IMG/VR virus record: IMGVR_UViG_3300007511_000019
Reading direction: 5' to 3' (one strand)
Origin: a virus
DNA: 64,000 nucleotides
The notes beneath the pieces were generated by a model. It searched no databases, had not been told where the DNA came from, and saw only the letters and a list, made by a program, of their open reading frames with translations. Shown here piece after piece: positions 1,526 to 36,000 of the stretch (position 1 is the first letter of the stretch; every line of letters begins with the position of its first letter). The position numbers and the translations under genes are program-made.

Positions 1526-1527
1526 TT

Positions 1528-2692: not shown

Positions 2693-2693
2693 C

Positions 2694-4161: not shown

Positions 4162-4170
4162 GGCACTACG

Positions 4171-4449: not shown

Positions 4450-4943
4450 ACGCTTTCACTCTTATTCTGTTGTTCGGAGCCAGTGGTCACGGCATGCCTT
4501 CGTTGATCATCCACGATCACTTCGATCGATTGGAGATCAACCATGTGTATGACGATGCTGGCCGTTGGCAGCTGACCCAGTTGCTGTGCTGTGACTTCAA
4601 AGAGATCTACCTGGACGCGAAGCAGCGGGAATACCTGGACGGCCCGCTTTGGTATCAGAAAAAGAATGGCCAGTTACCGCGAAGATATGTGGTACAGCAC
4701 TGGCATATGATCAGGGTCGACAAACCGGCTCTGTATCCGCACAAAGCCAAATCTGGGCTGTACACGATGATTTATCACGACAACAGCGGCGTGTTACGGA
4801 AGGTCACTGCACCAGTGTACGAAGAGACCCACACTGCTTTCGACCCCGAAGTCTGGGAACGTAGGATTTGGAGCAAGGATTCGAAACGTAGGGGCCTATC
4901 TGACGTGATTACTAAAGTAGCCCGCACGGCTACTTCCAACTGA
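4446..4943 (+). CDS. hypothetical protein
   Basis: The ORF is 165 aa and is ATGA-coupled to the preceding gene. Confidence 0.4.
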   Translation: MNAFTLILLFGASGHGMPSLIIHDHFDRLEINHVYDDAGRWQLTQLLCCDFKEIYLDAKQREYLDGPLWYQKKNGQLPRRYVVQHWHMIRVDKPALYPHKAKSGLYTMIYHDNSGVLRKVTAPVYEETHTAFDPEVWERRIWSKDSKRRGLSDVITKVARTATSN

Positions 4944-4982
4944 CCAAGGGCGGTCTTCGACTAACGAGTTCTAGGAATTCAA

Positions 4983-5459
4983 ATGTACGAGACCCAAACA
5001 AACGTGTCTTCTGGCGTGAACGTGTATCTGTCCGGACCTATTACCGGTGAGGGCTACGACACGGTCACTGACTGGCGAAAAGAAACATCTGACGTTCTAG
5101 CGGGCTACGGAATTACAGCCCTGTCGCCGTTACGACACAAACACTACTTGGCAGGCGAGACTGAGATTGCTCCCTCGTACGAGGAGCACACGATGTCTAA
5201 GCAAAAGTCCATCACTAACCGCGATCGGTGGGATGTGATGCGGTCCGACGTAGTGTTTGTTAACTTGCTCAACACCAATCGCATCTCAATCGGCACGGTG
5301 ATGGAAATCGCCTGGGCTGATGCTTTCCGTAAACCAATCGTCTTGGTGATGGAGCAGGACGGGATGCATTCTCACCCACTCCTCGAGGAGGTCTGTGCGT
5401 TTCATATCGAGACGCTAGAAGAAGGTATCGAGGTTTTGAAGGGCCTTCTGGTCCCGTAA
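4983..5459 (+). CDS. nucleoside 2-deoxyribosyltransferase-like / SLOG-fold protein
   Basis: The N-terminal VYLSGPITG motif is present. The C-terminal block DVMRSDVVFVNL...ISIGTVMEIAWADAFRKPIVLV matches the NDT/LOG-like signature (D..D....SD....DSGT.fElG.A.A.gKPv). Confidence 0.5.
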   Translation: MYETQTNVSSGVNVYLSGPITGEGYDTVTDWRKETSDVLAGYGITALSPLRHKHYLAGETEIAPSYEEHTMSKQKSITNRDRWDVMRSDVVFVNLLNTNRISIGTVMEIAWADAFRKPIVLVMEQDGMHSHPLLEEVCAFHIETLEEGIEVLKGLLVP

Positions 5460-17019: not shown

Positions 17020-18213
17020 ATGGCCAAAAAGAAGCAGTCCCTCAAAGAGCAGGTAGAAGCTCGAGGACAGGAGGCCCAGGTAGCCGCAGACGACCGTGTG
17101 CGGCTTCTGACCAAGGAAAACAAACGCCTCTCTTCACAGCTATCGCGGGCCAAGTCCGACGCGGCTGTGTACATTCAAGAGGCCAAAGACATTCTCGGAG
17201 AGCAAGTTACATTTGTGCTTGCCCCACCCGAGGTTGCCCCTGACGACAAGCGTAAGGGCATTCGCGAGGAACGCCCCGTATTCTGTTTGGGTGACGCTCA
17301 CTTCGGACACTACGAGCCCAAAGGCCCGCACAAGTTCGATAAAGACATCGCCCGCGAACGTGTGCTGCAAGCCACTAGCAAGTTCATTGCTACTACAAGG
17401 GACAGGCGAAGCAGTGCCCGTATTGATACGTGCCATCTCTACTTCATCGGCGATATGGTCGAAGGTGAGATGATGCGGCTGGGGCAAGCACACGGTATCG
17501 ATAGCCCTGTGTTCCTGCAGGCGATGTATCACGCCCCTGGTGCTATGGCTGAAGCCATCGTAGCCCTGGCGGCTGAGTTCAAAGAACTGATCATCGTCGC
17601 AGTCCCGGGCAACCACGGACGTAACGGGCGGTTCGGTAACGGTGCCCACCCCATGACTAACTGGGATCGCGTAGCCTACCAAACCTGTCGACACATGGTC
17701 GAGTCTGCCTTACTCAAGCTGGGTAAGAAAGGCGAGAAGCTGTGGAAGCGTATCAAGTGGAATCTGCCTACCGATCGCTCGTTGGACGAAGACTGTCCGG
17801 ACGACGACTACTTGGCAATCGACTACGTGTTCGATTGGTGTAACTGCCTAGCCCATGGTGAAAACCTCAGGGGTAAAGGTTGGGGCGGTATTCCGTTCTA
17901 CGCTGTCGAAAAGATGGTTACCCGATACGACGCCATCCTCGACGACCCGATCGACTTTATGTACATGGGTCATATCCACGTACATGCAAGCATCCCGTCG
18001 AATTATCGGCAGGTGTTCGTGAACGGGGCGATCGAGTCCAGCACAACGTTCGTCCGAAAGGAACTCATGTCGGCGAACCCTCCGAGTCAATCGGCAGTGT
18101 TCTACGATCCGGAATTGGGACCGATTAGCGAACACACGTTCTATCTGTGTGATCGATTCCCGTCAGGCACGCGAGTCATGTCGGCACTCAAGAACCGGGG
18201 GATCATCCAGTGA
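17020..18213 (+). CDS. calcineurin-like metallophosphoesterase with an N-terminal coiled coil (phosphatase or SbcD/Mre11-like nuclease)
   Basis: All four MPP motifs are present: CLGDAHFGH, IGDMVEG, GNHGRNG and MGHIHVH. Confidence 0.65.
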   Translation: MAKKKQSLKEQVEARGQEAQVAADDRVRLLTKENKRLSSQLSRAKSDAAVYIQEAKDILGEQVTFVLAPPEVAPDDKRKGIREERPVFCLGDAHFGHYEPKGPHKFDKDIARERVLQATSKFIATTRDRRSSARIDTCHLYFIGDMVEGEMMRLGQAHGIDSPVFLQAMYHAPGAMAEAIVALAAEFKELIIVAVPGNHGRNGRFGNGAHPMTNWDRVAYQTCRHMVESALLKLGKKGEKLWKRIKWNLPTDRSLDEDCPDDDYLAIDYVFDWCNCLAHGENLRGKGWGGIPFYAVEKMVTRYDAILDDPIDFMYMGHIHVHASIPSNYRQVFVNGAIESSTTFVRKELMSANPPSQSAVFYDPELGPISEHTFYLCDRFPSGTRVMSALKNRGIIQ

Positions 18214-18260
18214 GATGGTGATCTAAATAAGCCAGACCTTCGCGTCACAATAAATTGGTA

Positions 18261-18294
18261 AGGGCTTAGCTCGGATGCTAAGCCCTCTTTTATT
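18261..18294 (+). terminator. rho-independent terminator
   Basis: Perfect 10-bp stem (AGGGCTTAGC / GCTAAGCCCT) with a 6-nt loop, followed by CTTTTATT. Confidence 0.7.
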
Positions 18295-18302
18295 GCCGTC
18301 AG

Positions 18303-18638
18303 ATGATGGAGGCTTTCATGCAAAGCCAGCGAAGTGTCGAGGTCGGGCCAGACTACCTGGATGTGGACGTCCGACAACTTGTCTTACACTGGAATAGTCA
18401 CATCCATACGTTTGGGTTCGATGTGATATACGTCAACAGCAATGACAACATTTCAGTTAAGCAAGGCGGACTTTACCGCAACGAAATCCCGACACTCTGT
18501 GAACTGGGCAGACGGGTACTTGACTTCTTCCCGTATGGCTTCTTCCCCCCTGAGATTGCAAGCCAGCTCGCGGCCATACGTGCCGAATCTACGTCGCTTA
18601 ACAGACGATCGCGACCACTGGCCGCGTTCATGAGTTAG
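18303..18638 (+). CDS. hypothetical protein
   Basis: ORF of 111 aa that sits between two terminators. Confidence 0.3.
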   Translation: MMEAFMQSQRSVEVGPDYLDVDVRQLVLHWNSHIHTFGFDVIYVNSNDNISVKQGGLYRNEIPTLCELGRRVLDFFPYGFFPPEIASQLAAIRAESTSLNRRSRPLAAFMS

Positions 18639-18660
18639 GCTGCGAGAAGTCACACTAGTG

Positions 18661-18689
18661 GGTCCCGACGAAAGTCGGGGCCTTTTTTT
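18661..18689 (+). terminator. rho-independent terminator whose U-tract is part of the conserved TTTTTTTAGCTATCAG motif
   Basis: Stem CCCGAC / GTCGGG with a GAAA loop and a 7-T run. Confidence 0.65.
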
Positions 18690-18711
18690 AGCTATCAGGG
18701 CCTGCTAGAAT
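18683..18711 (+). promoter_or_regulatory. conserved motif TTTTTTTAGCTATCAG followed 7 nt later by TAGAAT (copy 1)
   Basis: Identical 16-mers occur at 18683, 21930 and 62103. Here TAGAAT is at 18706-18711 and the ATG is at 18730. Confidence 0.5.
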
Positions 18712-18729
18712 CTTTGGGAGGAGATCCTT

Positions 18730-20509
18730 ATGCCCAATATCTTGCTGCCTGAACTCAGCACTGACGCCGAAGAGATGTCTATGCTCGGATTCCCGATCGG
18801 GAATTTGGAGAAGGTATCATCACCCCTAACAGGGGGTTTGTGGCCAGAACTTCTTTCGTATCTTCCCGTTCGGGAAAATCGCCTCCATGGGGAAATTCAC
18901 GAAAAGAGGGGTGAAGACGCGAAAGGCATTCCAGACCGAAAGTACTATGGCGACCTATCTAGAGTTTCTCCGCAGTTACTGGACTTCGTTATCCAACGGC
19001 ATCTTGCCGAGAGAGCTGGCCCTCACTTTGATTTCCGATTCGGAGACCCCAAAGGGCTCTTCTCCTGGGCAACCAGAAAACCGATGCCCGGCATTGGCGG
19101 ACGAACCGCCCTATTCCAGCAGCCCATGCACTCCTACAAGTACAAAGATTGGGAGGGCACAATTCCTAGCGGACGCTATGGGGCTGGACGGGTTAAGAAA
19201 CAAGAGGATGGCAAACTTCTCATTACCAAAGCCAGTCCGGAATCTATCCACTTCACCATGGCCCACAAGAAGCACCCGCAACGCTTCGTGATGATCAAAC
19301 CGAAGGGCTGGAAAGATAAAGACTGGTTGCTTATCAACAAGACCCCGACTGAGCAATTGCCGTACGAGAAAGTACGGTACAAAAAGATTCCAGCGGAGCA
19401 GGTCGACAAGTACATCGGCCAAATGCAAAAAGGCGATACTCTGGAGGCAAAGGTTGACGGGGCCTCCTCGCTGATTAAACTAATGAAAGAGGGCGTCGAG
19501 GTGATGTCCTACCGTACGTCCAAGGAAACGGGCCGACCGATACTTCACACAGAAAGATTGCTTCATGGTCTCCCCGCTTACAACATCCCAGACGACCTGG
19601 TTGGCACGGTACTTAAAGGCGAACTCTACGGAGTGCGACCTGGAGGATCCGGAGATGGTGATGGCTCCGCTGACAAGGGAGACCCTCTACGCGGCCATGT
19701 TGCTGATGAACCTCAGCTGGCGGAAGGGAGCTTTGAACCTGACGGAGGGCGAGAAAGAGATACTCGAGTTTCAGAGAGAGCAGACCAGGAGGATGTTCCC
19801 GGAACTGTTAGGCCCCAAGACGACGGACTCGGAGAATATCTTCAAGAGGCTCTTTCCGCCGGTACCGGTAGACCAACTCAGCGAGAGCGAGTACTCCGCC
19901 CTCAAGAACTTGGAGGACTGCTCAACTCCTCCGTCGCCAAATCAATCCAAGACCAGCGAGAGCGACAAGTAAAACTCAGAAATGCCGTTTACGATATCCA
20001 ACAGCTAGGCAACAAACCAATCGACTGGCATGTGACTCCCCGGCTCGAGCGTAGGGATATGATTCGAAAAGTTCTTGAGCACCTACCGCCCGAGACGTTT
20101 CACATCTCAGAAGCCGCAGAGACGCCCGAAGCCGCCCAGAGACTCTGGCAACAAATACAGTCTGGTGAGCACCCGATTACTCGAGAGGGTGTAGTCATGC
20201 ATCCGCTACACGGTCCCCCCACGAAAGGAAAAATTTTAGAAGACGTAGACGTGTATTATCGCCAAGCATTTCCGGGCAAAGGTAAACACGAAGGATCGGG
20301 TGCTGGCGGCTTCGAATACTCACTCACACCTGACGGGCCTATAATTGGTAAGGTAGGAACAGGTTTCACGGACGAGTTACGCAGGTCCCTTTTCGAGAAC
20401 GATCAAGACTATGCCGGAAGGATTGCACGAATCCAATCGCAAGAACAGCTTCCTAGCGGAGCTTATCGAGCACCGAGCTTTCTGGCTTTTCACGAGGATC
20501 AACCTTATG
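18730..20509 (+). CDS. LigD-type 3'-phosphoesterase domain fused to an ATP-dependent polynucleotide ligase (no in-frame stop, so the 3' end is uncertain; the tracker ORF runs to 21927)
   Basis: PE domain: GPHFDFRFGDPKGLFSWATRKPMPG...DWEGTIPSGRYGAGRV matches the LigD phosphoesterase signature. Ligase motifs: I is KVDGAS, III is LKGELYG, IIIa is AVYDI, IV is EGVVMH, plus an OB fold (GKVGTGFTDE...RAPSFLAFHED). A low-complexity insert of about 110 aa lies between motifs III and IIIa. Confidence 0.6.
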
Positions 20510-21046
20510 CAACAACGAAACAGTCTAGGCAGGTTTCTGCAAGGACACAAATCCAGAACGACTCACGGACAAAGTGGAACGAAAACATACAAGGTGTGGG
20601 CGGGGATGAAACGCCGCTGCCTGGACCCAAAACGGCACAATTACAAACACTACGGAGGACGAGGCATAAAGATATGTGCAAGGTGGCGGGACTCCTTCGA
20701 GAACTTTCTGGAAGACATGGGAACGTGCCCAGACGGTTATTCGCTGGAGAGGGAGAACAACGACAAAGACTACTGTCCCACGAATTGCACTTGGATACCT
20801 CTCGAGAAACAGGCAGCAAACACTCGGAGCAACGTGTGCTTGACTTTTCGCGGCGAAACCAAGCATCTGACACAATGGGCGAGAGAGTCGGGAATCAGGC
20901 AGCAGACATTGACCAGGCGTCTTCAGCGAGGTTGGTCCGTGCAGCGTGCACTAACCGAGAAGCCAGTAGTAGGCAAAAATCAATTCTCGTCCAGCCAGAC
21001 CTCGGACTCACGTCTGAAAAACTCGCTGAACTCGGGATCGGAATAG
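20507..21046 (+). mobile_element. free-standing HNH/AP2-like homing-endonuclease gene with a C-terminal helix-turn-helix (+1 frame relative to the ligase ORF)
   Basis: YKVWAGMKRRCLDPKRHNYKHYGGRGIKICARWRDSFENFLEDMG...GYSLERENNDKDYCPTNCTWIPLEKQAAN is typical of phage HNH homing endonucleases, and LTQWARESGIRQQTLTRRLQRGWSVQRAL is an HTH tail. The ATG at 20507 coincides with the expected C-terminus of the ligase OB domain. Confidence 0.6.
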
Positions 21047-21049
21047 ATC

Positions 21050-21927
21050 CCGACGAGCACACAGCCCTGGAAAAAGAAGCCTCACTTGCTAGACTTCTGA
21101 CACTACCTGGCGTCAAGCACCTACTTCGCTGGCAGTCAAAGCTTGGTCGGAAGGCTAACGACTACTTGTGGAACAAACTGCTAACCGCAAATCGCCGAAC
21201 CGCGTTGGGCACCGCAGGCGTCGTAGGCGGTGCCGGTTACGGCGGCTACCGGATGGGCCAAGGCGACTGGCAAACTCCAGGCGACATTCTACACGACCCG
21301 ATCATCCAAAAGCCGCTGGAATGGTCTACAGTTATCCCGGAGAAATATAACATCCCATTGTGGACAGCAGCAGGTATTGCTGGTGGCCGTAGTGTGGGCC
21401 GTCACGCGGCCCAAGCCGCCGTAGGCAGTGCCAACGCGTTGCGGCGGCTAGTTACGATGCAGCCCTTATCGCAAGCGTTGTCTGGTCAAATCGGTAGTAC
21501 CCTTGGTGTTGCTGGGCCTATCTTAGGCGGTGCCAAAGGCGGCGTCGGAACCTACTACACTCACCGGGCAGTAGAGAAAGCCAGGGAAGCTGCTGAGCAG
21601 CCAACAGTACCTGAAGTCAAGCACAGCACAGATTCGCACTACCTGCGAGCCTTCTCCCAAGTAAACCCTGCACACCTTTACCGAGGCGACCAGTCTGCTC
21701 TGCGTAACGCTAGCAACTACATCAACGCCTTGTTAATACAGGGTCGGCAAAACGTCGCCAAAGCCTATAATACTGATAGCCTCAACCTGGCCTTGGCTCC
21801 GATGGGGCAACGTTGGCAACGAGCCTTGGCCAGTCTTGAGGGTTACGATCCCATCATGTCCAATCCCCTTGATCGGGTGTTGCACATGATGCCAGCAACC
21901 CCGCAGCTGAGTCGTCCGTACGTATGA
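21050..21927 (+). CDS. Gly/Ala-rich putative membrane/virion protein encoded by the 3' part of the 18730-21927 ORF (start undefined)
   Basis: Segments such as TAGVVGGAGYGG, AAGIAGGRSVG and GVAGPILGGAKGG resemble the downstream gene 21953-22792. There is no ATG near the 5' end, so an alternative start or continuation of an upstream exon is possible. Confidence 0.3.
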
Positions 21928-21929
21928 CC

Positions 21930-21945
21930 TTTTTTTAGCTATCAG
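21930..21945 (+). promoter_or_regulatory. conserved motif TTTTTTTAGCTATCAG (copy 2), directly after the stop at 21927
   Basis: Exact 16-mer. There is no clear upstream hairpin and no TAGAAT downstream (the ATG is at 21953). Confidence 0.4.
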
Positions 21946-21952
21946 AGAAACC

Positions 21953-22792
21953 ATGGACCTACTGGAAAAGACTCGCGAGCTAATTGAATGGCAACGTGTG
22001 CCCGAGACGGCTGTGGCTCTCTTTAACGAGAAACGAGCCGAAATCCTTGAGGCGTTTGAAAAGGACGCCTACTCGCCCACGTTGCGTACTTTAGGCGAAT
22101 CCATGAATTTGTTGCCGGGCAAGTTTCCTGGCGGCATACCCAACGCCCCCTCCCCGTTGGCCTCAATGCTGGTCAGCGGCATGGCTGGCGGTGCTCTAGG
22201 CTACGGTCTGGGTACTGTTGGCGAAGCTGTCTTACCCAAGGAATGGAAACGTAGACGACTTCGCCGAACCCTCGCCCTACTGGGTGCCGGAGCCGGAATG
22301 GCTCCCGGAGCCGCCTGGGGCATGGTAAACATGGGGGATGATCGCAACTTCAACGACCCCTCGCTAATCACAGGACCGGCTTCTCCGTACCAGGGAGAGA
22401 AGACAGCGGTTCACGATGAGATCAAACAGTCCTATGATAATACAGGCCTGGAGGGTTCCTTTACACCGATCCCAGTTAACGAGTTCAACCAGATCATCTG
22501 GAAAGATCCTCGAGTGTCGCGACCTCTCTCACCGGCCGTTCAAGCTGCAGCCACCGGGCTTGTTACCGGAGCCGCTAATCTGCCGGGCCGACGTAATGTG
22601 AACTTTGTCACACCAATGGATATTGGACGTATGGCCGCAGGTATGGGCTCGGGTTACCTCTCTGGGGCCCTTGTCGGTAAAGCCCTCGGCACTATGATGG
22701 GAATGCCGCCGTCTACGCAGGACCGGCTAAAAAGTACCGGTATGTGGGCAGGTATGGTGGCTAATCTAGTTCCTATTGCCTTTGGAGGCTAA
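21953..22792 (+). CDS. Gly-rich putative membrane/virion protein
   Basis: The protein is 279 aa with GxxxG-rich hydrophobic segments. Confidence 0.4.
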   Translation: MDLLEKTRELIEWQRVPETAVALFNEKRAEILEAFEKDAYSPTLRTLGESMNLLPGKFPGGIPNAPSPLASMLVSGMAGGALGYGLGTVGEAVLPKEWKRRRLRRTLALLGAGAGMAPGAAWGMVNMGDDRNFNDPSLITGPASPYQGEKTAVHDEIKQSYDNTGLEGSFTPIPVNEFNQIIWKDPRVSRPLSPAVQAAATGLVTGAANLPGRRNVNFVTPMDIGRMAAGMGSGYLSGALVGKALGTMMGMPPSTQDRLKSTGMWAGMVANLVPIAFGG

Positions 22793-22793
22793 T

Positions 22794-23420
22794 GTGGCCA
22801 AGCGTTGCATCAAGATCTACGGGCTGACACGTACTTGCACCAACCTCACCATGCTGTTGCTACAGCGAAATTTCGATTGCACCGTCTGGTCGAACGAAGG
22901 TGACAGTTGGAAACACGGCAGAAACAAAATCGAGAACCGCAAGGTAAATCTACCTGAGCGTAACATGGTTGCAGAGGACATCCGCTTCGTTATCTGTACC
23001 AAACATCCATACACTTGGTTCTTCTCGCAGTTGCGTTGGGAGAACCGGCAAGGCGGATTTCGTCGGAATATGGACGACTTGCTCAAATACTCCAACACCT
23101 ATCAAGGGTGTCCGTTCAAAGCCTACAACGAACTCAACAAGCACTGGCTAACGCTTTCAGACGACCCAGCCATTTTGCAGCAAGTTACCCAGGAAGAACT
23201 GGAAGCAGACCAAGGCAAGGTATTAGCTCGCGTCGAAAAAGCATTCGACTTGCCCCGCCTTCATACAGATTGGCAGTTGGAGCACCGTAGTGTGCGGCCT
23301 AATCTGAAGCCGACTTCAGCTTACCAAAAACGGAATCAGCAGCTGTTGCCAGGGCAGAAAGCTTATGCGGACAGCAAGTTAGACCGCGAGACGTTACAAC
23401 TACTTGGCTACGAACTCTAG
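22794..23420 (+). CDS. hypothetical protein (GTG start with RBS GGAGGC; the tracker TTG start is at 22776)
   Basis: The N-terminus YGLTRTCTNLTML is Ser/Thr-rich and P-loop-like. Any resemblance to sulfotransferases is weak. Confidence 0.35.
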   Translation: MAKRCIKIYGLTRTCTNLTMLLLQRNFDCTVWSNEGDSWKHGRNKIENRKVNLPERNMVAEDIRFVICTKHPYTWFFSQLRWENRQGGFRRNMDDLLKYSNTYQGCPFKAYNELNKHWLTLSDDPAILQQVTQEELEADQGKVLARVEKAFDLPRLHTDWQLEHRSVRPNLKPTSAYQKRNQQLLPGQKAYADSKLDRETLQLLGYEL

Positions 23421-25116: not shown

Positions 25117-25894
25117 CCAACCTACCTTCTACGACGCTGTACAACACGTCACTGCTAAGGCTTTGCAACGTAAAGCTCTAGCTGGAGCAGGTACAGCGGC
25201 ACTAGCTGGTCTCGGTACTGGTGCAGGTCTACGAGGTATCCTCGGCCTGTTGGAAATGAGCAGGCAAGGTGCCCAGCCGCCCCAGGCTCAAGCCCCTACC
25301 GGTCAGATCGAGGTCCCGGTGGACGACGAGAAGATCGCTGCCTTGGCGGATTTCCTCAAAGGCGACTATGCCAAATCGACTTCTGGTGTGCCTTGGGCCA
25401 TTCCTGCCGCTGTTGGTGCCGGTGCTGCCGGAGCGTACGGTGGTTGGAAAGGTATCGACGCACTGCTCGAGCAAAGACGAAAAGGCGAACTAGAGGCTGA
25501 GCTTGAAAAAGCCAAGATGGACTACGAAGCTGCCTTGTCTGGCGACACCAAGTTAGCGGAAGACCTGGACGAACTCTACGACACAGTAGAGAAACAAGCT
25601 GTCTCCGCGTCAGACGCAGCAGGAACGGCTACAGGACTCTACGGAGTCTACGGCGGTACTTCAGCTTTGTTGGCCGCCATTATGGCTTACCAATACGGTA
25701 AGAAGCGACAACGCCGGTCCTTGCTTGAAGCGGCACAAGAGAAACGCCGCCGACAACGCTTTGCACGACAACCTGTGCCGATCCAAGTACGGCCAGTGCC
25801 TAAGCAGCATGAGCAGGACCCGCTGCAGGCAAGTAAGTCCCCGTTCCAGGCCGCACCTAGCTTGGACGAACAAGAAGATCAACTGGATAAGTAA
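25058..25894 (+). CDS. hypothetical Ala/Gly-rich membrane-associated protein with a charged C-terminus (start uncertain; the tracker start is 24986)
   Basis: An RBS (AAGGAA) precedes the ATG at 25058. It is TAATG-coupled to the RNAP gene at 25894. Confidence 0.35.
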   Translation: MTNLALVLKASRQSSEKSANQPTFYDAVQHVTAKALQRKALAGAGTAALAGLGTGAGLRGILGLLEMSRQGAQPPQAQAPTGQIEVPVDDEKIAALADFLKGDYAKSTSGVPWAIPAAVGAGAAGAYGGWKGIDALLEQRRKGELEAELEKAKMDYEAALSGDTKLAEDLDELYDTVEKQAVSASDAAGTATGLYGVYGGTSALLAAIMAYQYGKKRQRRSLLEAAQEKRRRQRFARQPVPIQVRPVPKQHEQDPLQASKSPFQAAPSLDEQEDQLDK

Positions 25895-28800
25895 TGCCAA
25901 ACATTCTGTCACCGCCCTCCGGCGTGCTAAGCGGGACCAAACCTGCTCTGCCGCAACCGGTACGTCCTCTGCAAAAAGAGGAACCGGAAAAGCGAGAGTT
26001 CGGTGACGCTTTGGCCACGCGGCGGCTTATCTACAACAACGTGCTGGCGTCGACTCAAACACTTGAGCCGATCTCTAACCAACGCCACACGCTACAACTG
26101 CGTGATGTTAAATACGCTGACGATCCCAAGTTCTCGTACAAGCAGCAAAAGGAAGCCATCCTCGGCGGTAAGAGTCTCAACCGTCGACTGCAAGGCACCT
26201 GGGAGCTGTCGGATAACGAAACTGGCGAAGTGCTTGACAGCAGGCCCGGCGTAGTTGCTCGTGTACCGCACCTGACGGATCGCGGTACGTTTATCCACAA
26301 CGGTAACGAGTACACCCTGTCCAACCAGATGCGGTTGCGGCCAGGCGTGTTTACCCGTGTCAAAGACAATGGAGAAATTGAAGCCCACGCAAACCTATTG
26401 CCGGGTAAAGGCGTCAGCCACCGGTACTTCCTAGACCCCGAGAAGGGTATTTTCCACATGCGGATGGGGCAGGCGAAAATACCGCTGATGCCTCTTCTCA
26501 AGTCGCTCGGAGCAACAGACAAACAATTGCAGGAAGCATGGGGCAACGAACTGTGGCAAGCTAACGCTCAAAAGGACAACCCAGGAACCCTATCGAAGCT
26601 GTACCAAAAACTGGTACGTAAGATTGACCCTGATGCCGACGAGCCAGCTAAACGCCTAGCCGTTGCCGAAGTCATGGAGAAAATGGAACTGGACCCCGAG
26701 GTTACACAACGAACCTTAGGTAACAGTTTCAACAGGATGGGGTTGGATGCGATTCTAGCCACCACCAATAAATTGCTCGCAGTATCCCGTGGAGAACAGG
26801 AGGTCGATGACCGTGATCATCTCGCTTATCAAAATGTCCTGGGCCCAGAAGATTTGTTCGCGGAACGTATCGCAAAGGATTATGGCGGACTCCGCCGACA
26901 ACTTTTGCATAGATCTAGCTTTAAGGGAGACTTGTCAGCCGCACAGTCCGGTATGCTAAGTCGCCAGTTAGAAGCCGCGTTACTCCATTCTGGATTAGGG
27001 CAAAGCCTTGAAGAAATCAACCCAGCAGACATCTTCGACAAACAATCAAGAATCTCACGTCTCGGTGAGGGCGGCATCCCGTCCATCGACGCCGTGCCAG
27101 ACGAAGCTAGGGCGGTTCAGCCGAGCCACTTGGCTTTCATGGACCCAGTACGCACGCCGGAATCATTTAAGGTCGGTGTGGATGTGCATATTGCCAACAC
27201 GGCTCGTAAAGGATCTGATGGCCGAATTTACTCACCGTTCGTTGATCCTCGTAGCGGAAAAGAGGTGTGGAAGTCGCCCCAGGACCTTGCAGATCTCACA
27301 GTCGCTTTTCCCGGCGAAATGCGTAGGGAAACTAAGCGGGTTGGTGCCATGCAAGGCGGCAAACTCAAGTTTGTCCCAAAACAGTCTGTGGACCTGGTTG
27401 TGCCCACTTTCGAAAACGCTTTCTCGCCGCTAGGTAACATGGTTCCCATGAAGTCAGCGGTCAAGGCCCAGCGTATGGCTATGGCTAGCCGTATGCTCAC
27501 ACAGGCCTTGCCGCTCGAGAACGCAGAGAGTCCGCTTGTACAGACCGGCATCTCTGGCGAAGAGGATACAAGTTACGAGCAGCGATATGGTCGTAAGATG
27601 GGTGCCGTCTTCGCCGACAAGCCAGGACGAGTAGTTTCAATAAGCGACCAAGGGATTAAGGTCAAGTACGACGACGGAACTACAGAAGAGAAGCAGCTCT
27701 ATAACAACTTCCCGTACAACCGCAAAAGCGTAACCGGTGACACTCGTATTGTGATCCGACGCAAGAATGGCGAACTGTGGACTGGATCAATCGATAAGTA
27801 CCACTGGGAAGATAGCGACCAAGTGCAGTCGGTGGACCCAGACTCCAAGCAGTCTGCCTGGAAACGCGTCACAGGTTACATTACGCACTGCAACGACAAA
27901 CAGCTGTTGCGGATAACTACTAAATCCGGGAGATCGGTCGTGGTCACGGAAGACCACAGCCTTATTACGCTGGACAAACACGGAGAACTGGTACCGGTCT
28001 ACCCTAAAGACTGCGAGATCGGGCTAACCCGCCTGCCTGTAGCCATGTTGCAGGGTCATCGATCTCGGCGACATGGCCAGGAGATTAGCAAAGACCCGAG
28101 CGGCATTCTGTGGGGGCTGTACGTAGCCGAGGGGCACTGTCCGCCTACCCAACCAGGGCTAGTTAACATTGCAGTAGAGCCAGACGACCGTGCAGAACAG
28201 GTGTTGGAAGTGGCTCGTCAGTGCGGTTATGAGGCGTACCGCAATGGCGGTAACGTATGCTTTACTGACCACGCCTTCGCCGCCAAGGCGACTGAGCACT
28301 TTGGCCACCTGTCGCACAACAAGCGAATTCCCGCCTGGGTGCTTGGTACTCCCGTCTGGTTTCGGGAAAGTTTTGTTCAAGGCTATATGGCTGGCGACGG
28401 GTGCTTGTGGGAGGACTCAAACGGGTCGCTACAGCTGCAGGCCGTTACGGTTTCTAGAGAGCTTCGCGACGGATTTGTCGAGTTGCTGTTAAGCCTAGGC
28501 ATTATGACGACGCTTTTCGATGCACCTAGAAAGCACCTCAACGACAACTGGCGTGACGCGTACGGTTGCCGCATAATCAGTAGCCACGTAGGGCGACTTC
28601 GTAAGTGGTTCTACTACGCAGACCGTGAGCGACAACTCCACGAGCTGCTAAAGCCTACGTATCGAGCCGCAAGCTTTGACCTGGTCCCGGTAGCCGCCGA
28701 GGCCCGTAAACTTCTGTACAAGGGTTATATCGGGACGGTTCCTAGCTATGTCTATAAGACCGCCAACCAGGGAGCAGTTGCTAAGCACCGGTTGAAAGAA

Positions 28801-31551
28801 AATACAGGCGTGTTCGGCGACTGGGCACGCTCTGATGTACTGTGGGACCCTATCGAAGAAATTATCCCTGTTGCTTACGAGGAACGAGTATATGACCTTT
28901 GCGTCCAGCACTCCGAGGCATTTTGCGTCAACGGCGGACTGCTCGTGCACAACACCTACATTCACAATACTCCGACAGTCAAGCCAGGTGACACCTTTGG
29001 TGTGGGGCAGGCCTTGGCTAAATCCAACTTTACCGATGCTGGTGGCACTACCGCTCTCGGTAAGAACGCTCGCGTTGCGTACATCCCATTCCGAGGGCAG
29101 AACTTCGAGGACGCTCTTGTGATCTCCGAGTCTTTCGCCAAGCGAATGAGTTCGGAGCACATGTATCAACACGGCGTGGACTTCGCAGACGACAAGAAAA
29201 CCAAACGACGCGACTATGTCTCACTCTTCCCATCCAAGTATGACAAACAAACTTTAGAGAGCATCGACGAAGACGGCGTCATCAAGCAGGGCACTATCGT
29301 CAGTCACGGCGACCCCCTTATTCTGTCGGCACGGCAGAAGGACGTTGCTCAGCATAAAGTCCATCGTCGCAAGGCTCCTGGCTTTACCGACCAATCCGAG
29401 ATCTGGAAGCACCATGCCCCTGGCGTGGTTACTGATGTATTCAAGGGCAAGAAGGGCACCACGGTCCTAGTCAAATCGCTCTCAGCTATGCAAAAGGGCG
29501 ACAAGCTATCAGGCCGCTACGGTGACAAAGGTGTTATCTCGGCGATCGTGCCGGATAACGAGATGCCCCACTCAAAGGACGGACAGGCTTTCGAAGTTTT
29601 GCTTAACCCTCTTGGTATTATCTCCCGTACAAACCCGGCCCAAATGGTTGAGGCCGCACTGGGAAAGATTGCTGCCAAGACAGGGAAACCTTACAAGGTG
29701 GTTGATTTTGAAGACATACAAGATTTGACGGACTTTGCGATCCAGGAACTCAAGAAGAACCAAATGGAGGACCTGGAGGACATAACCGACCCGTCGAACG
29801 AGAGAAAGATTCCCGGCGTCTTCACCGGCAACCGCTTCTTCATGAAACTCCACCATACGGCGGAGGGAAAGGGGCAGGGTCGTGGTACAGGAGGTTATAC
29901 GATGGAAGGTACTCCCGCGAAAGGCGGTGAGACCGGTTCCAAGCGAATTTCACTTCTCGATAACAACGCACTCCTCTCGCACGGTGCCACTGAGGTTCTT
30001 CGAGACGCAGGAGCAATTCGAGGACAACGTAATGAGGAGTTCTGGCTCCCATTCATGCGTGGTGTTACTCCCCCAAAGCCCAAGGTACCCATTGTCTATC
30101 AAAAGTTCGTGAACGAGCTTAAGGCATCAGGTATTAACGTGGTGGAGGACGGAACACAAACACACATTATGGCCCTCACCGACAAAGACGTCGGTGAGCT
30201 GGCTGGACAGAGATACCTCAAGAGCGGCGACACGGTTCAATTTGAAAAAGGATTGAAACCGATCACCGGCGGTCTGTTCGACCCCGCACTAACCGGCGGA
30301 CACAACGGCAATCGCTGGTCGGCAATCAAACTCGCAGAACCTATGCCGAACCCGGTAATGGAAGAACCCATTCGCCGCGTCTTGGGACTTACACAAAAGC
30401 GATTCGAGGCCGTCCTATCCGGGCAGGAAGAGTTGCAAGGACACCGTGGTCCTGCAGCCTTTACCAAGGCCCTAGGTAAGATGGACCTGGATAAAGAGAT
30501 TGCTTACGCACAAGCGGAATTCAAATCCGGACGTAAGGCCTCTCGAGATATGGCCATACGTAAACTGGGTTACCTCAAGTCCGCCAAGAAACTAGGCATA
30601 CACCCTAAAGACTGGATGCTGACCAAGGCTCCTGTATTGCCCCCGATGTTTCGTCCGGTGTCGGTGATGTCCGACAACCGCCTTCCTTTGGTATCGGATG
30701 CTAATTTCCTTTACAAGGAATTACTGGAAGCTAACGACAACCTAACAGAGATGTCAAAAGAGGTGGACGATGTCGCCGACGAACGTCTTGCGGTCTACAA
30801 CGCTTTCAAAGCAGTCACAGGACTTGGAGATCCAATACACCCAAAACTGCAGGAGAAACGCGTCAAGGGGATTCTTAAGCACGTATTTGGTTCTAGCCCT
30901 AAGCTGGGTGCTGTGCAGCGTAGGCTTGTATCCAGTACTGTGGATCTTGTTGGCCGTGCAGTTATTACTCCTAACCCTGACCTGGACATGGACCATGTTG
31001 GGCTTCCAGAGAATAGAGCCTGGGACATCTACAAGAACTTCATCGTACGAAGACTCAAGCGGCGGGGTATGCCGCTGGTCGAAGCGGCCAAGCAGGTCGA
31101 GAACCGTTCAGAAGTAGCTAAACAAGAGTTGGTCAAAGAGATGGGCGAACGGCCCGTGGTGATCAACCGAGCCCCGGTTTTGCACCGTTTCGGCATCATG
31201 GCTTTCTACCCCAGACTTACCAAGAGCGACACTCTGGAGGTCTCCCCGTTGATCGTGAAAGGCTTCGGAGCTGACTTCGATGGGGATGCTATGCAATACC
31301 ACGTACCGGTCTCCGACGAGGCCAAAGACGAGGCCGTGGACCGTATGTTGCCAAGTCGCAACCTCTTAAGCCCGGCTGACTTCAAGTCGCCTATCCACGT
31401 ACCGAGTCAAGAATACACCGGTGGATTGTACGCTGCGTCGTCCACCAAATCTAAGCGGCGGGTGCGTACCTTCCGCAATACCAAGGATATGCTCGCAGCC
31501 TATCGGCGTGGTGAGCTAGACATCAACGATGAAGTGGAGGTGATGGAGTAG
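25894..31551 (+). CDS. rpoB: phage multisubunit RNA polymerase: beta subunit fused to the N-terminal (rpoC1/gamma-like) part of beta', interrupted by an intein
   Basis: Beta blocks include LTDRGTFIHNGNEY...RPGVFT, GKNARVAYIPFRGQNFEDALVISE, GDKLSGRYGDKGVIS...LLNPLGIISRTNP and GNRFFMKLHHTAEGKGQGRGTGGYT. Beta' blocks follow in the same ORF: PITGGLFDP, VLPPMFRPV, NRAPVLHRFGIMAFYP and GADFDGDAMQYHVP. The ORF ends about 90 aa after the DFDGD motif. Confidence 0.85.
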   Translation: MPNILSPPSGVLSGTKPALPQPVRPLQKEEPEKREFGDALATRRLIYNNVLASTQTLEPISNQRHTLQLRDVKYADDPKFSYKQQKEAILGGKSLNRRLQGTWELSDNETGEVLDSRPGVVARVPHLTDRGTFIHNGNEYTLSNQMRLRPGVFTRVKDNGEIEAHANLLPGKGVSHRYFLDPEKGIFHMRMGQAKIPLMPLLKSLGATDKQLQEAWGNELWQANAQKDNPGTLSKLYQKLVRKIDPDADEPAKRLAVAEVMEKMELDPEVTQRTLGNSFNRMGLDAILATTNKLLAVSRGEQEVDDRDHLAYQNVLGPEDLFAERIAKDYGGLRRQLLHRSSFKGDLSAAQSGMLSRQLEAALLHSGLGQSLEEINPADIFDKQSRISRLGEGGIPSIDAVPDEARAVQPSHLAFMDPVRTPESFKVGVDVHIANTARKGSDGRIYSPFVDPRSGKEVWKSPQDLADLTVAFPGEMRRETKRVGAMQGGKLKFVPKQSVDLVVPTFENAFSPLGNMVPMKSAVKAQRMAMASRMLTQALPLENAESPLVQTGISGEEDTSYEQRYGRKMGAVFADKPGRVVSISDQGIKVKYDDGTTEEKQLYNNFPYNRKSVTGDTRIVIRRKNGELWTGSIDKYHWEDSDQVQSVDPDSKQSAWKRVTGYITHCNDKQLLRITTKSGRSVVVTEDHSLITLDKHGELVPVYPKDCEIGLTRLPVAMLQGHRSRRHGQEISKDPSGILWGLYVAEGHCPPTQPGLVNIAVEPDDRAEQVLEVARQCGYEAYRNGGNVCFTDHAFAAKATEHFGHLSHNKRIPAWVLGTPVWFRESFVQGYMAGDGCLWEDSNGSLQLQAVTVSRELRDGFVELLLSLGIMTTLFDAPRKHLNDNWRDAYGCRIISSHVGRLRKWFYYADRERQLHELLKPTYRAASFDLVPVAAEARKLLYKGYIGTVPSYVYKTANQGAVAKHRLKENTGVFGDWARSDVLWDPIEEIIPVAYEERVYDLCVQHSEAFCVNGGLLVHNTYIHNTPTVKPGDTFGVGQALAKSNFTDAGGTTALGKNARVAYIPFRGQNFEDALVISESFAKRMSSEHMYQHGVDFADDKKTKRRDYVSLFPSKYDKQTLESIDEDGVIKQGTIVSHGDPLILSARQKDVAQHKVHRRKAPGFTDQSEIWKHHAPGVVTDVFKGKKGTTVLVKSLSAMQKGDKLSGRYGDKGVISAIVPDNEMPHSKDGQAFEVLLNPLGIISRTNPAQMVEAALGKIAAKTGKPYKVVDFEDIQDLTDFAIQELKKNQMEDLEDITDPSNERKIPGVFTGNRFFMKLHHTAEGKGQGRGTGGYTMEGTPAKGGETGSKRISLLDNNALLSHGATEVLRDAGAIRGQRNEEFWLPFMRGVTPPKPKVPIVYQKFVNELKASGINVVEDGTQTHIMALTDKDVGELAGQRYLKSGDTVQFEKGLKPITGGLFDPALTGGHNGNRWSAIKLAEPMPNPVMEEPIRRVLGLTQKRFEAVLSGQEELQGHRGPAAFTKALGKMDLDKEIAYAQAEFKSGRKASRDMAIRKLGYLKSAKKLGIHPKDWMLTKAPVLPPMFRPVSVMSDNRLPLVSDANFLYKELLEANDNLTEMSKEVDDVADERLAVYNAFKAVTGLGDPIHPKLQEKRVKGILKHVFGSSPKLGAVQRRLVSSTVDLVGRAVITPNPDLDMDHVGLPENRAWDIYKNFIVRRLKRRGMPLVEAAKQVENRSEVAKQELVKEMGERPVVINRAPVLHRFGIMAFYPRLTKSDTLEVSPLIVKGFGADFDGDAMQYHVPVSDEAKDEAVDRMLPSRNLLSPADFKSPIHVPSQEYTGGLYAASSTKSKRRVRTFRNTKDMLAAYRRGELDINDEVEVME
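27727..28953 (+). mobile_element. intein (409 aa) with a LAGLIDADG homing-endonuclease domain in RNAP beta
   Basis: The flanks (...YNRK and TYIHNTPTV) match the beta region ...YTRSNQN / TCINQMPCV. Hint block A is SVTGDTRIV (Ser1). The C-terminus is ...LLVHN with Thr at +1. LAGLIDADG-like motifs are ILWGLYVAEGH and FVQGYMAGDGCL. Confidence 0.7.
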
Positions 31552-32792: not shown

Positions 32793-33045
32793 GCAATTGC
32801 GGGCTCGAATGGCCCGACCAGCTACCCCCACACTCAAAGTTCTGTCTGTCTGGGTACAGCACGGAGTAGAACAGCAGTTACTGCCCATAGCATCTGGCGA
32901 TGACGACGCCCAGCTGCGTGGACTGCTTGCAAATTGGGAGCAGCAACTGGACTACGGGGAAATGGTCGCTTCAAACATGCGGTATCTAGGGCGGCACCGG
33001 ATTGTAACAGTTCCTTTCATCGGACGGCAAAATGGCAAAGCGTAA
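32761..33045 (+). CDS. hypothetical protein
   Basis: The 94-aa ORF overlaps both neighbouring genes. Confidence 0.25.
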   Translation: MALQGGFGVPEQLRARMARPATPTLKVLSVWVQHGVEQQLLPIASGDDDAQLRGLLANWEQQLDYGEMVASNMRYLGRHRIVTVPFIGRQNGKA

Positions 33046-36000
33046 GGCTACTGCTGGCCAGATCCTCATCAACGAAGTGTTGCCTGAAGACATGCGGGAC
33101 TACAACCGCACGCTCGACAAGAAGGGTCTGTCCAAACTGCTTACCGAGGTAGCCCAGAAGCACCCGGACGACTATCGAGATATCTCCCACCGACTGGGCA
33201 AGATCGGACGCGAAGCCGCCTTTACATCAGGCGGCAATTCTTTTGGCCTAGCCCACATGAAGCGTGCTTTGGTCGCCCGCAAAATGCAGTCTGGCCTGAA
33301 AACCCGTATCAACGCATTGCTGGACAACGACAGCCTTGACGATGACGCAAGAGACGCAGCCATTATCAAACTGGTTGGTAAGGCCATGCCGCAGCTGCAG
33401 GACGCCATTCTTGAAGAGAGCGACGCCGAAGGTAACCCGCTCGCCCAACAACTCAAAGGTGCCGGTCGCGGTAACAAGATGAACCTCTCTTCGTTACGAG
33501 GTAGCGACGGGCTGTATCAAGATCACCGTGACAACATCATCCCGATTCCTGTACTCAAGAGTTACTCAGAAGGGCTCTCGCCGCTAGAGTATTGGGGCGG
33601 GACTTACGGTGCCCGGCAAGGTGTTATGGCGGTTAAGTTCGCTACACAGGACGCTGGCTTTCTATGCCTTGCGGAAGGCACGGAAGTGCGGATGGCTGAC
33701 TGGAGCACCAAGCCTATCGAAGAGATCCAAGTAGGTGACACGGTACTGGGAGCTAACAAGTACGGAACGACCTTTCCCGTCAAAGTGACCGCCACTTTTG
33801 ACAACGGTGTGCGGCAGCTAACAAAGTTCCGCTTCCGGTACGGCAAGGCCCGCAACCGTTTTATTGAGGTGACAGCCACCGACAAACACAAAGCCCTGGC
33901 CGAGCATCTTCGTCGCCGACGCAAACGCCCTGATCCTAGGTTACATATTGAGATCAGCCAAGACGTTATGCCAATGGGTACGTTCGAACGACGGACAGTT
34001 TCGCGGCACGCTCTAGTCCCACCTCAAGGCTACTCCTGCCCGCAAACCGGTCCGAGAGACGAGTACTGCTGGCTGCTAGGCCTCCTGACTGCCGAAGGCG
34101 GTTTAACTACGAATCACGTAGGACTGTCTTGTGGAGATCCGGAGCTGCTAAAAGAGGCTCGACGGTTGACAAAGCCAATGGGTTTCGAGATACGCCAAAA
34201 GAAAAATGCCCAGTACGAATACAGCTTTTATGACACCCAGCCCTTGCCCGCAAAAGGTAAGCCTGGCGGAGGCATTGCCACCGGTTCTTTCCGAAACCGG
34301 CTCAAGGCCAAGCTGGCTGAACACGGGCTGCTAGGTAAACTGGCCCAGGACAAGGAATTGCCCGAACAAATTTGGGCGTGGCCCAACTCACATGTCTGCG
34401 GTTTTCTTCGTTGGCTCTTCGCCGGTGACGGGGGTGTCAGTCCGTCGAACAACGCTACGCTGCCTGTAGTCACGTTGGGCATGACAGCGGAGCCGGTTGT
34501 GCGGGGCGTCGAACGCTTGTTGGCCGATCGTTTTGGCATCTACGGTCAGATTAGTATGGACAAGGCGGAGAACTGCCCTAAAGCCAACCATGACTGCCAT
34601 GTTCTTGCCATTTCCGATCCCCAGTCGGTGGAACGCTTCGCACAACACATAGGTTTTGTTGCTGGTAGTAAGCAGGCCCGTCTAATGACGCTGCTGGCCG
34701 AGGCCGACCCTTGCGAGAGGCACAGCCGCTTTCTCTTCCATTACCTCGACTCCGAGGACGTTGGCGAAGGTCCTACTTACGATATCGAGGTCGACAACGA
34801 GGACCACCTATTTGTACTGGCCAACGGGGCAATTGTCTCCAATTCCAAACAACTCAATCAAATCGCACACCGCTCAGTCGTGATCGACGAAGACAGCGAT
34901 GGCGAGCCCGACACCCTCATTGGTCTGCCTGTCGATACTGACGACATGGACAGCGAGGGTTCGTTGTTGGCGGCTCCTGCGGGCAAGTATAAACGAAACA
35001 CAGTGCTCACTCCTAAGATCATCCGCGAATTGAAGCAAGCGGGAATCAAACGGCTCTTGGTGCGAAGCCCAGCAATCGGTGGTACGCCAGACGGCGGTGT
35101 GTACGGCAGGGACGTCGGTATTAGAGAATTCGGTCGACTTCCTACACGAGGCGAAAATGTTGGACTCACAGCTGCTCAAGCCCTATCTGAACCGCTGTCT
35201 CAGGCTCAACTCTCGGCGAAGCATACAGGCGGGGTGGCTGGCGAATCCCAAGCAGTCTCTGGATTTGATTACATCAACCAACTCGTACAAGTTCCCAAAA
35301 CCTTCAAAGGCGGAGCAGCCCATTCAACGCTTGACGGTATCGTACAAGCTGTCGAGCCCGCTCCTGCCGGTGGTACCTATGTCTCCATCAACGGAGAACG
35401 ACATTACATCGCAGGAGGGTTCGAGCCAAAGGTTAAGAAAGGCGATCACGTCGAAGCTGGAGACGTTATTTCTGACGGCACTCCGAACCCTTCGTTGATT
35501 ACCAAACACAAAGGCGTGGGCGAAGGCCGACGTTACTACATCAAGTCGTTTGCTGACGCCATGAGTTCTGCTGGCATCAAATCCCACCGCCGCAACGTCG
35601 AACTACTAGCGAGAGGGCTTATCAACCACGTTCGCCTTACAGACGAGATCGGGGACTTTGCACCTGACGACGTGGTGCCCTACTCCATGATGGCCGCTCG
35701 GTACATTCCCCGAGAAGGGTTCAAAACAATGGATCCCAATCGTGCAACAGGTAAGTATCTTGAGAGGCCCTACCTGCACTATTCGATCGGCACCAAGATC
35801 CGCCCATCGATGATGAAAGACTTCAAAGACTTTGGCGTGAAAAGCGTTGATGTACATGACGACGAACCGCCTTTTGAACCAGAAATGATCCGAGGCATGG
35901 CTAACCTGCAACACGACCCAGACTGGATGACCCGTATGTTCGGTTCTGGTCTGAAAGGTAGCCTGCTTCGCGGTGTACATCGAGGCGGCACTTCGTCGGA

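Follow-up and report, generated by a model that had tools for sequence, protein, structure and literature searches.

INTRODUCTION

Free-standing homing endonuclease genes (HEGs) lie between genes or split them into two open reading frames (ORFs), and intron-borne HEGs are spliced (e.g., I-HmuI; T4 mob genes). To our knowledge, homing endonucleases have been thought to persist within genes only via splicing, in introns or in inteins. Here, we analyze a 64,000-nucleotide stretch of viral DNA (IMG/VR virus record IMGVR_UViG_3300007511_000019; "the window" below refers to this whole stretch) in which a homing-endonuclease-like gene of an HNH family lies in the +1 frame of a long ORF at positions 18730 to 21927. 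The ORF is predicted to encode a multidomain protein that includes an ATP-dependent DNA ligase, and its own frame (the host frame) stays open through the nested gene. Taken as a whole, the locus is very probably best explained as a +1 HNH gene in the linker of a polyvalent protein gene, with the host frame read through and unspliced.

The first report of HNH genes hidden in an alternative frame dates from 2025 and concerned a few mycobacteriophage methylases (PMC11855218). Of the cases described, the nearest to the window is the ShiLan domain, an out-of-frame HNH gene in a mycobacteriophage DNA methylase whose own frame contains no stop and in which no splicing element could be detected (Arsenault, Gosselin & Gogarten 2025, Genes 16:178, PMC11855218), and the Pacc40 gp60 insert was presented in the same paper as a further case (PMC11855218). 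The window resembles both in that an HNH ORF lies out of frame in a phage protein gene whose frame has no internal stop (PMC11855218). As with ShiLan, neither an intron nor an intein can be detected, translation in the host frame gives a featureless sequence that is predicted to lack structure, and the insert is patchy among related genes. With an insert that is absent from homologues, a stop-free host frame, a same-strand endonuclease ORF in an alternative frame, and no detectable intron or intein, the window is, as far as these predicted features define the class, a ShiLan-type locus.

The window also differs from ShiLan in several respects. Its HNH protein is of the PHROG 3377 type with a C-terminal helix-turn-helix (HTH) and lacks the flanking zinc fingers described for ShiLan, a separation that is drawn from the published description. 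The host is a ligase-containing polyvalent protein of a jumbo phage, with the insert in an interdomain linker, whereas the ShiLan host is a methylase; the nested gene is in the +1 frame, whereas ShiLan is in the third frame; and Shine-Dalgarno (SD)-like motifs are present, whereas none was found for ShiLan. The present analysis adds statistics for the stop-free frame, a rule for the wobble base T, and a profile search that suggests hundreds of protein clusters.

Out-of-frame homing endonucleases have also been described within inteins of actinobacteriophage (bioRxiv 10.1101/2025.01.02.630785) and of cyanobacterial dnaX (bioRxiv 10.64898/2026.09.14.751524). There, too, the endonuclease is encoded in a different frame from that of the host, which continues through the region, and one of the loci examined here, L043, is such a case with the same HNH family (numbers with P denote related proteins and numbers with L denote related DNA loci, the coordinates given for the latter being their own). 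The window, in contrast, is without an intein, so that the read-through would not be removed by protein splicing and would remain in the mature product. Polyvalent proteins are long, multidomain proteins of phages and conjugative elements for which packaging and injection have been predicted (Iyer, Burroughs, Anand, de Souza & Aravind 2017, J Bacteriol 199:e00245-17, PMC5512222). The protein family of the window shuffles InPase, 2H, NUDIX, GNAT, SNF2, and peptidase modules as described in that work (PMC5512222); however, its core module, a LigD-type phosphoesterase joined to a ligase, was not highlighted there ("LigD" appears 0 times and "ligase" 3 times).

RESULTS

Nested HNH gene

Within the host ORF, the +1 frame is open from 20411 to 21046, with its first ATG at 20507. 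The product from this ATG matches PHROG 3377, "HNH endonuclease," at E = 1.1e-55, and gives strong matches to PHROG 374 and PHROG 2081, which are also labeled HNH endonuclease. No match was obtained with the HNH models of Pfam and NCBIfam, and comparison with PDB sequences yielded chance matches only. AlphaFold2 (AF2) modeling of the product gave a mean predicted local distance difference test (pLDDT) score of 85.6, with values of at least 89 per 10-residue block across core residues 21 to 150. A Foldseek search of BFVD with this product returned phage proteins named "HNH endonuclease" or "HTH homing endonuclease" (E = 8e-17 to 1e-9). By family membership and predicted fold, the nested gene is a homing-endonuclease-like gene of the PHROG 3377 "HNH" family, and the first-pass annotation, made from the letters and ORFs of the window, was correct in placing an HNH gene in the +1 frame at this point.

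Relatives of the +1 product numbered 270 at E ≤ 1e-10, nearly all of them unnamed and without a Pfam domain. The nested protein itself is unrecorded in the protein collection (the best match is 53 to 57% identical); gene callers retain the host ORF. In the HNH motif, the canonical first His is replaced by Arg. An N-terminal Cys-rich module (W.C.C.CG...SCGC) is present in most free-standing relatives and in the intein-nested copy of L043. The copies nested in polyvalent proteins have no Cys-rich module and begin just before a conserved HG...Y..W..MK.RC block. A neighbor-joining tree of the HNH copies was star-like; the four copies from polyvalent proteins grouped loosely with the free-standing L003 and L031, and L043 was placed elsewhere.

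The HNH ORF overlaps host-conserved codons at either end. The ligase domain ends with ...APSFLAFHED (D590, nucleotide [nt] 20499), and the HNH ATG, 8 nt further on, falls within the codons for P592-Y593-A594; the HNH stop codon (21044 to 21046) lies just past the host motif LAELGI. The first-pass annotation was therefore right in its coordinates and description of this junction. No direct or inverted repeats of note flank the insert. An SD-like GAGGA formed by host codons precedes the ATG (Table 1), and similar arrangements precede the nested HNH genes of L146 (AAGGA, 8 nt, ATG) and L148 (AAGGAG, 7 nt, ATG).

These start sites bear on the possibility that the HNH frame is reached by programmed +1 ribosomal frameshifting, which would produce a ligase-HNH fusion besides the full-length protein and would make the HNH sequence a recoded domain instead of a selfish gene. 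The +1 frame is indeed already open 96 nt before the ATG, the HNH homology of L152 and L153 begins without an ATG, and polyvalent proteins do recruit nuclease domains (PMC5512222). However, in the window, L146, and L148, the HNH gene has an ATG preceded by an SD-like motif at a suitable spacing, and the junction contains neither a host-frame stop nor another known stimulator of +1 shifts. The occurrence of the same HNH lineage in unrelated hosts (a terminase intein, DNA polymerase A, and a 4,876-residue methylase-helicase protein) also fits a mobile gene better than a recoded domain. We consider frameshifting very unlikely.

Host-frame read-through

To quantify the openness of the host frame, the HNH protein sequence was held fixed, and its synonymous codons were resampled 3,000 times with the codon usage of the window. 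Across the HNH gene, 0 host-frame stops were observed compared with 8.95 expected, and 0 of 3,000 resamplings were stop-free. L001 and L043 behaved alike, with stop-free host frames and no more than 1 of 3,000 resamplings stop-free in any test. The open host frame across the HNH gene is kept by selection, beyond chance.

Free-standing and intron-borne HNH genes share two properties with the nested gene: a phage family that is commonly annotated as HNH or homing endonuclease, and a sporadic distribution. They differ from it in frame structure, since the window HEG overlaps a continuous host ORF, whereas among 80 viral contigs with homologous HNH genes, the host-equivalent frame contained 3 to 27 stops in 79. 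The only stop-free exception was L043, which is itself nested in a terminase intein.

A potential host-frame stop arises where an NNT codon is followed by AA, AG, or GA. In the six nested copies examined, T was the wobble base at 0 of 293 sites preceding AA, AG, or GA, compared with 353 of 1,780 corresponding sites in the long genes of the window; elsewhere in the nested genes, T at the third codon position was used normally. Because every NNT codon has an NNC synonym, the host frame can be cleared of stops without altering the endonuclease protein. This freedom to exchange T for C at the wobble site may explain why all nested copies found are +1 to the host. The window and L001 are 49% identical in the HNH frame and 31% identical in the host-frame reading, and this better conservation of the HNH frame points to the endonuclease as the conserved product, with the host frame merely kept open.

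In the host protein, the read-through corresponds to residues 591 to 757, a segment that is missing from P0005, P0011, P0012, and others and that almost all relatives are without. Its pLDDT scores were 31 to 43 in the AF2 model of the host protein.

If the HNH gene lay in a self-splicing intron (group I, group II, or of unknown type), the ligase and the C-terminal part would be joined without any read-through. Phage HNH genes are often intron-borne (PMC11855218), and a group I intron was among the explanations first offered for this ORF. An Rfam covariance-model search found no intron at E ≤ 10 in positions 18000 to 23000 and nothing at E ≤ 1 in five related loci; at permissive settings, the only matches in 18000 to 23000 of the window were a fluoride riboswitch on the minus strand (E = 0.053) and P10 sRNA (E = 0.31), both weak and unrelated. 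The HNH ORF occupies the entire insert and extends into host-conserved codons on both sides, leaving a ribozyme core without room. Moreover, a spliced insert needs no stop-free host frame, yet ten nested copies have one, and six show wobble-T avoidance. An intron is thus a highly improbable explanation.

An intein at the window was considered as well and rejected: no Hint or intein Pfam domain was found at E ≤ 0.1, and the insert has no N-terminal Cys or Ser and no C-terminal His-Asn. The insert starts at ...HED/QPYATT and finishes at ...ILVQPD/LGLT (slashes mark its boundaries), and its 165 residues are too short for a splicing domain, in contrast to the L043 intein, which runs from CIAEGT to LVHNC.

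Host polyvalent protein

The host ORF is open throughout its 3.2 kb and encodes 1,065 residues, as first described, including the stretch through the HNH gene and the Gly-rich segment. The PF13298 match to its phosphoesterase domain scored 39.9 bits, above the Pfam cut-off of 31.1; the NCBIfam model LigD_PE_dom scored under its own cut-off on the same domain. PHROG 114, "ATP-dependent DNA ligase," matched residues 241 to 613 (E = 1.4e-14). Motif I of the ligase is KVDG at K241 (nt 19450 to 19461), and K241, D243, and G244 are invariant columns in the alignment. The Pfam model DNA_ligase_OB_2 matched residues 515 to 586 below its cut-off (21 versus 28 bits), in a region with pLDDT scores of >90. 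With the KxDG motif I, the OB domain, and the phosphoesterase domain, this part of the protein is a predicted ATP-dependent DNA ligase with a LigD-type 3'-phosphoesterase. The AF2 model, built from 65 sequences, was confident at residues 70 to 305, 385 to 590, and 965 to 1055; pLDDT scores were <50 over the loop insert (described below), the HNH overlap, and most of the Gly-rich part.

Relatives of the host protein were collected by a search of 5.8 billion proteins, which gave 160, and domains were surveyed in the 120 homologues listed. Among the latter, the phosphoesterase-ligase core is joined to Pfam domains for InPase, 2H-SAK, SNF2 helicase, NUDIX, GNAT, C39 peptidase, and inteins. The relatives share an arrangement in which "...FLA(F/L)HEDYP" is followed by a short linker with L(A/E)ELGI(V/I)K, by variable modules, and by a conserved domain of ∼80 residues at the C terminus. 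P0039 and P0040 differ by one domain cassette, and many relatives are encoded on contigs of 100 to 230 kb.

Relatives that are HNH free have the domain order of the host protein without the inserts, and a single polypeptide contains their ligase, LAELGI linker, and C-terminal domain; in P0005 (602 residues), the gap between the ligase and the C-terminal domain is only 37 residues. This contiguity indicates that both parts belong to one polypeptide and that no ligase stop codon is "missing." Judged by its predicted domains and its relatives, 18730 to 21927 is one gene for a multidomain polyvalent protein of a jumbo phage, not a ligase gene minus its stop. The suggestion that a free-standing HEG had replaced the ligase stop does not hold, as the HEG took the place of no stop codon and lies within a linker between domains. 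A fused multidomain virion protein, the closest of the options raised by the first-pass annotation, was right as to the fusion of several domains, given the contiguity in the HNH-free relatives.

The C-terminal helical domain stands at the extreme C terminus of otherwise differing polyvalent proteins (P0002, P0003, P0004, P0005, P0011, P0013, P0029, P0039, and P0040). Residues 965 to 1055 matched no Pfam or PHROG family; the domain could be a packaging or targeting module. The next gene (21953 to 22792) encodes a product whose composition resembles that of the Gly-rich host segment, with several glycine-zipper-like runs and a weak match to Pfam Gly-zipper_YMGG. The Gly-rich segment and this product may be membrane-active ejected proteins.

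The window is jumbo phage DNA, as seen from its RNA polymerase subunit genes and virion structural genes. A DNA similarity search with the 3.2-kb region against 50,697 phage records gave no match. The coordinates of all features are collected in Table 1.

TABLE 1 Features of the window and of related loci with a nested HNH gene (aa, amino acid residues of the host protein; coordinates at L loci are their own)
Feature	Coordinates	Strand	Basis or remark
Host gene, polyvalent type, 1,065 aa, single frame	18730..21927	+	Uninterrupted ORF; P0005 and P0015 align from residue 1
Predicted LigD-type 3'-phosphoesterase domain, aa 89-190	18994..19299	+	Pfam PF13298 (LigD_N), E = 5e-10
Predicted ATP-dependent DNA ligase nucleotidyltransferase and OB domains, aa ~216-590, interrupted by the loop insert	19375..20499	+	PHROG 114, motif I
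Low-complexity loop insert, aa 304-387, 84 aa, between GELYG (motif III) and PQELGG	19639..19890	+	In ligase frame
SD-like GAGGA from host H-E-D codons, 8 nt before HNH ATG	20494..20498	+	Sequence
Host-frame read-through of HNH gene, aa 591-757, hydrophilic, predicted unstructured	20500..21000	+	Absent from most relatives
Nested HNH-family homing-endonuclease-like gene, 179 aa plus stop	20507..21046	+	+1 frame relative to host; PHROG 3377
Host linker motif LAELGI, aa 765-770, where host sequence resumes	21022..21039	+	L(A/E)ELGI(V/I)K after ligase in P0002, P0011, P0012, and L001
Gly-rich, weakly hydrophobic segment, aa ~820-945, glycine-zipper-like runs	21187..21564	+	Hydropathy and composition; low pLDDT
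C-terminal helical domain, aa ~965-1055, conserved	21622..21894	+	BLASTP to C termini of P0002, P0005, P0009, P0011, P0013, and P0015; pLDDT 83-91
Multisubunit RNA polymerase beta-type subunit genes, phage-like, large	25894-31551 and 33032-36094		Sequence matches
Virion structural protein gene	57245-58597		Sequence match
L043, nested HNH gene in intein (CIAEGT...LVHNC) of terminase large-subunit gene	Terminase gene 2430-5288; HNH 2794-3516		+1 to intein frame; intein frame stop-free
L149, nested HNH gene			+1; host with 2H-SAK and InPase
L150, nested HNH gene			+1; host of 4,876 aa with Eco57I, helicase, and ART-PolyVal (methylase-helicase protein)
L151, nested HNH gene			+1; host with LigD_N and ligase; HED site identical to that of the window
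L152, nested HNH gene	polA 501-3146		+1; host is DNA polymerase A
L153, nested HNH gene			+1; host with helicase and NUDIX

Recurrence of the nested gene

Ten nested copies were confirmed on DNA (the window, L001, L043, L146/L147, L148, L149, L150, L151, L152, and L153); all are +1 to the host, and all host frames are stop-free. The nine other loci are independent and come from different samples, and their HNH genes are only 40 to 58% identical. L001 has the layout of the window, with a C-terminal half of the ligase that is 64% identical. In P0019 (L146/L147) and P0029 (L148), the same HNH family occurs at another site, directly after the InPase domain, again in the +1 frame of a host ORF that has no stop across it. 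At L043, the endonuclease region of the intein is replaced by the same HNH family. At L146, a CsrA-family gene (PF02599; 2725 to 2907, minus strand) lies immediately upstream of the polyvalent protein gene, and at L153, the gene just upstream of the helicase-NUDIX host carries a second copy of the same HNH family (2 to 349).

The window is probably a metagenomic assembly, and an open frame over an out-of-frame gene could in principle be an artefact of assembly or sequencing indels, or of compensating frameshifts in a chimeric contig, as had been considered for this ORF; at L001, moreover, the C-terminal domain is in another frame. However, the host protein is recorded identically from three contigs (P0001), and the same layout on nine other independent loci, with HNH genes as diverged as stated above, refutes this explanation. 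Indels also cannot yield a total absence of stops together with wobble-specific avoidance of T. The probability of an artefact is close to negligible.

A profile built from the host-frame peptides of the read-through was searched against 1.84 billion representative proteins. It matched 533 protein clusters at E ≤ 1e-3, 84 of them at E ≤ 1e-10. Among the best 148 of the 533 matches, 96 had the match at least 100 residues from both ends, and 21 were >2,000 residues long. All five matches that were examined on DNA (L149 to L153) contained a nested HNH gene in the +1 frame of the host. In 59 hosts whose match was internal, the Pfam domains recorded were InPase (18/59), 2H-SAK (13/59), DNA_pol_A (12/59), SNF2 (7/59), intein splicing (3/59), and LigD_N (2/59). 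The match began 2 to 29 residues past the InPase domain in 7 of the 10 proteins examined, and this second insertion site was represented by at least 10 protein clusters. Some DNA polymerase A hosts have intein-like ends beside the read-through (P0191 and P0265), and others have none. These results suggest that the putative hidden HNH lineage is widespread.

In the ligase family, the HNH gene was found at the same HED site in three ligase lineages that are 41 to 64% identical; it was present in 0 of 63 ligase-family loci of IMG/VR. Such a patchy distribution is as expected of a mobile gene. The nested gene might instead be no longer mobile, either as a domesticated or decaying resident that is retained for some function of the phage or because the read-through peptide is the selected product. 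The window and L001, which are mutually closest in their ligases, both have the gene, so vertical inheritance is possible there, and the Arg at the first His of the HNH motif and the absence from polyvalent-nested copies of the Cys-rich module that most free-standing relatives carry would be in keeping with decay or domestication. Against this stand the absence of the gene from most relatives despite its presence at one site in such diverged ligases, its second site after InPase, the stronger conservation of the HNH frame than of the host frame, and the predicted lack of structure in the read-through. Loss of mobility therefore appears quite unlikely, and a mobile gene that is read through by its host frame remains the preferred interpretation.

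Loop insert

A second irregularity had been noted upstream, as a low-complexity insert of 110 residues at about 19640 to 19970. The insert is real, but it is shorter, at 84 residues (19639 to 19890). Among homologues with both anchor motifs (n = 117), most have 3 to 5 residues at this loop, and ∼40% have 12 to 189 residues of sequence rich in G, A, D, E, R, and P. The GELYG-PQELGG loop is a family-wide expansion hotspot; an entire NUDIX domain occupies it in P0070, and it reaches 458 residues in P0016. The loop insert of the window had pLDDT scores of ∼40 in the AF2 model, is predicted to be unstructured, and contains no tandem repeats.

The +1 ORF across this stretch (19565 to 19972) does exist, and it had been described as looking more protein-like than the ligase frame. 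However, it was open in 30% of synonymous resamplings of the ligase-frame protein (P = 0.30), and its peptide had no match in Pfam or PHROG and none among the 120 homologues; the idea that it is the true frame finds no support. In each of the seven loci with a long loop insert, the +1 frame has 0 stops and the +2 frame has 2 to 8, and the 110-residue loop insert of L146 is without any plus-strand ORF. A +1 stop requires T at the second codon position, and hydrophilic low-complexity sequence contains few codons of this kind; composition thus accounts for the open +1 frame. The notion of a gene concealed in the loop insert was rejected on the resampling result, the lack of a family match, and the recurrence of the same pattern in the seven loci. 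The loop insert is, from its composition and its counterparts in homologues, a genuine and ordinary low-complexity loop expansion, presumably translated in the ligase frame.

DISCUSSION

The window contains an HNH gene that occupies the interdomain linker of a polyvalent protein just after the ligase domain and is very probably neither spliced out nor read in the host frame. The endonuclease is probably made by internal initiation on the host mRNA at the ATG at 20507, with the SD-like GAGGA supplied by host codons. Ribosomes translating the host gene would pass through the insert, the host frame being stop-free, and would add ∼165 hydrophilic, predicted-disordered residues between two domains, where an extra linker may be tolerated. 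The rule that keeps the host frame open would be the one seen in the nested copies, with no wobble T before AA, AG, or GA. The patchy distribution suggests that the endonuclease cuts HNH-lacking alleles in coinfecting relatives and is copied in by repair, and the host frame may be kept open so that the C-terminal domain stays attached to the rest of the protein.

Several observations weigh against parts of this scheme. Translation through the insert, initiation at 20507, and endonuclease activity are all steps that we infer from the sequence. The SD-like sequence ahead of the HNH ATG of L001 is weak, and in L152 and L153 the HNH homology does not begin with an ATG. The low pLDDT of the read-through could reflect a shallow alignment, and a very divergent or novel ribozyme could escape detection by Rfam. 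L001 weakens the proposed reason for an open host frame: its C-terminal domain is encoded in the third frame (1958 to 2221), starting from an ATG, with a 37-nt overlap with the end of the ligase-frame ORF (ligase-frame stop at 1994). Keeping the C-terminal domain fused is thus not universal, as read from L001; a genuine split of the gene, a −1 frameshift site, or an indel could account for the third-frame domain there.

We favor, with some reserve, a broader proposal: that the nested gene is one member of a big and almost wholly unannotated guild of "frame-transparent" homing endonuclease genes, formed by this lineage of PHROG 3377 HNH genes. These genes would lie in the +1 frame of long phage ORFs, in the linkers of polyvalent proteins (mainly after InPase and LigD-type ligase), in DNA polymerase A genes, and in inteins. 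They would persist unspliced because avoidance of wobble T turns their +2 frame into a disordered linker free of stops, and they would go unreported by gene callers, which choose the host ORF.

The locus is unusual but of a recently recognized kind, one that is probably far more widespread than the literature shows. With it, hidden HNH genes are seen in a further endonuclease family, in jumbo phages, and in the interdomain linkers of polyvalent proteins. A simple molecular rule, in which no wobble T precedes AA, AG, or GA and the copy is always in the +1 frame, may explain how the host frame is left open at no cost to the endonuclease. The 533 cluster matches suggest that many such genes are missing from annotations, and featureless "linker" segments of giant phage proteins may reflect a gene concealed in another frame. 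The locus lends itself to direct tests of whether overlapping frames are translated and whether homing can proceed without splicing. If the proposal of a frame-transparent guild is true, unspliced overlap with a host gene would be a third general lifestyle of homing endonucleases, beside introns and inteins and intergenic free-standing genes.

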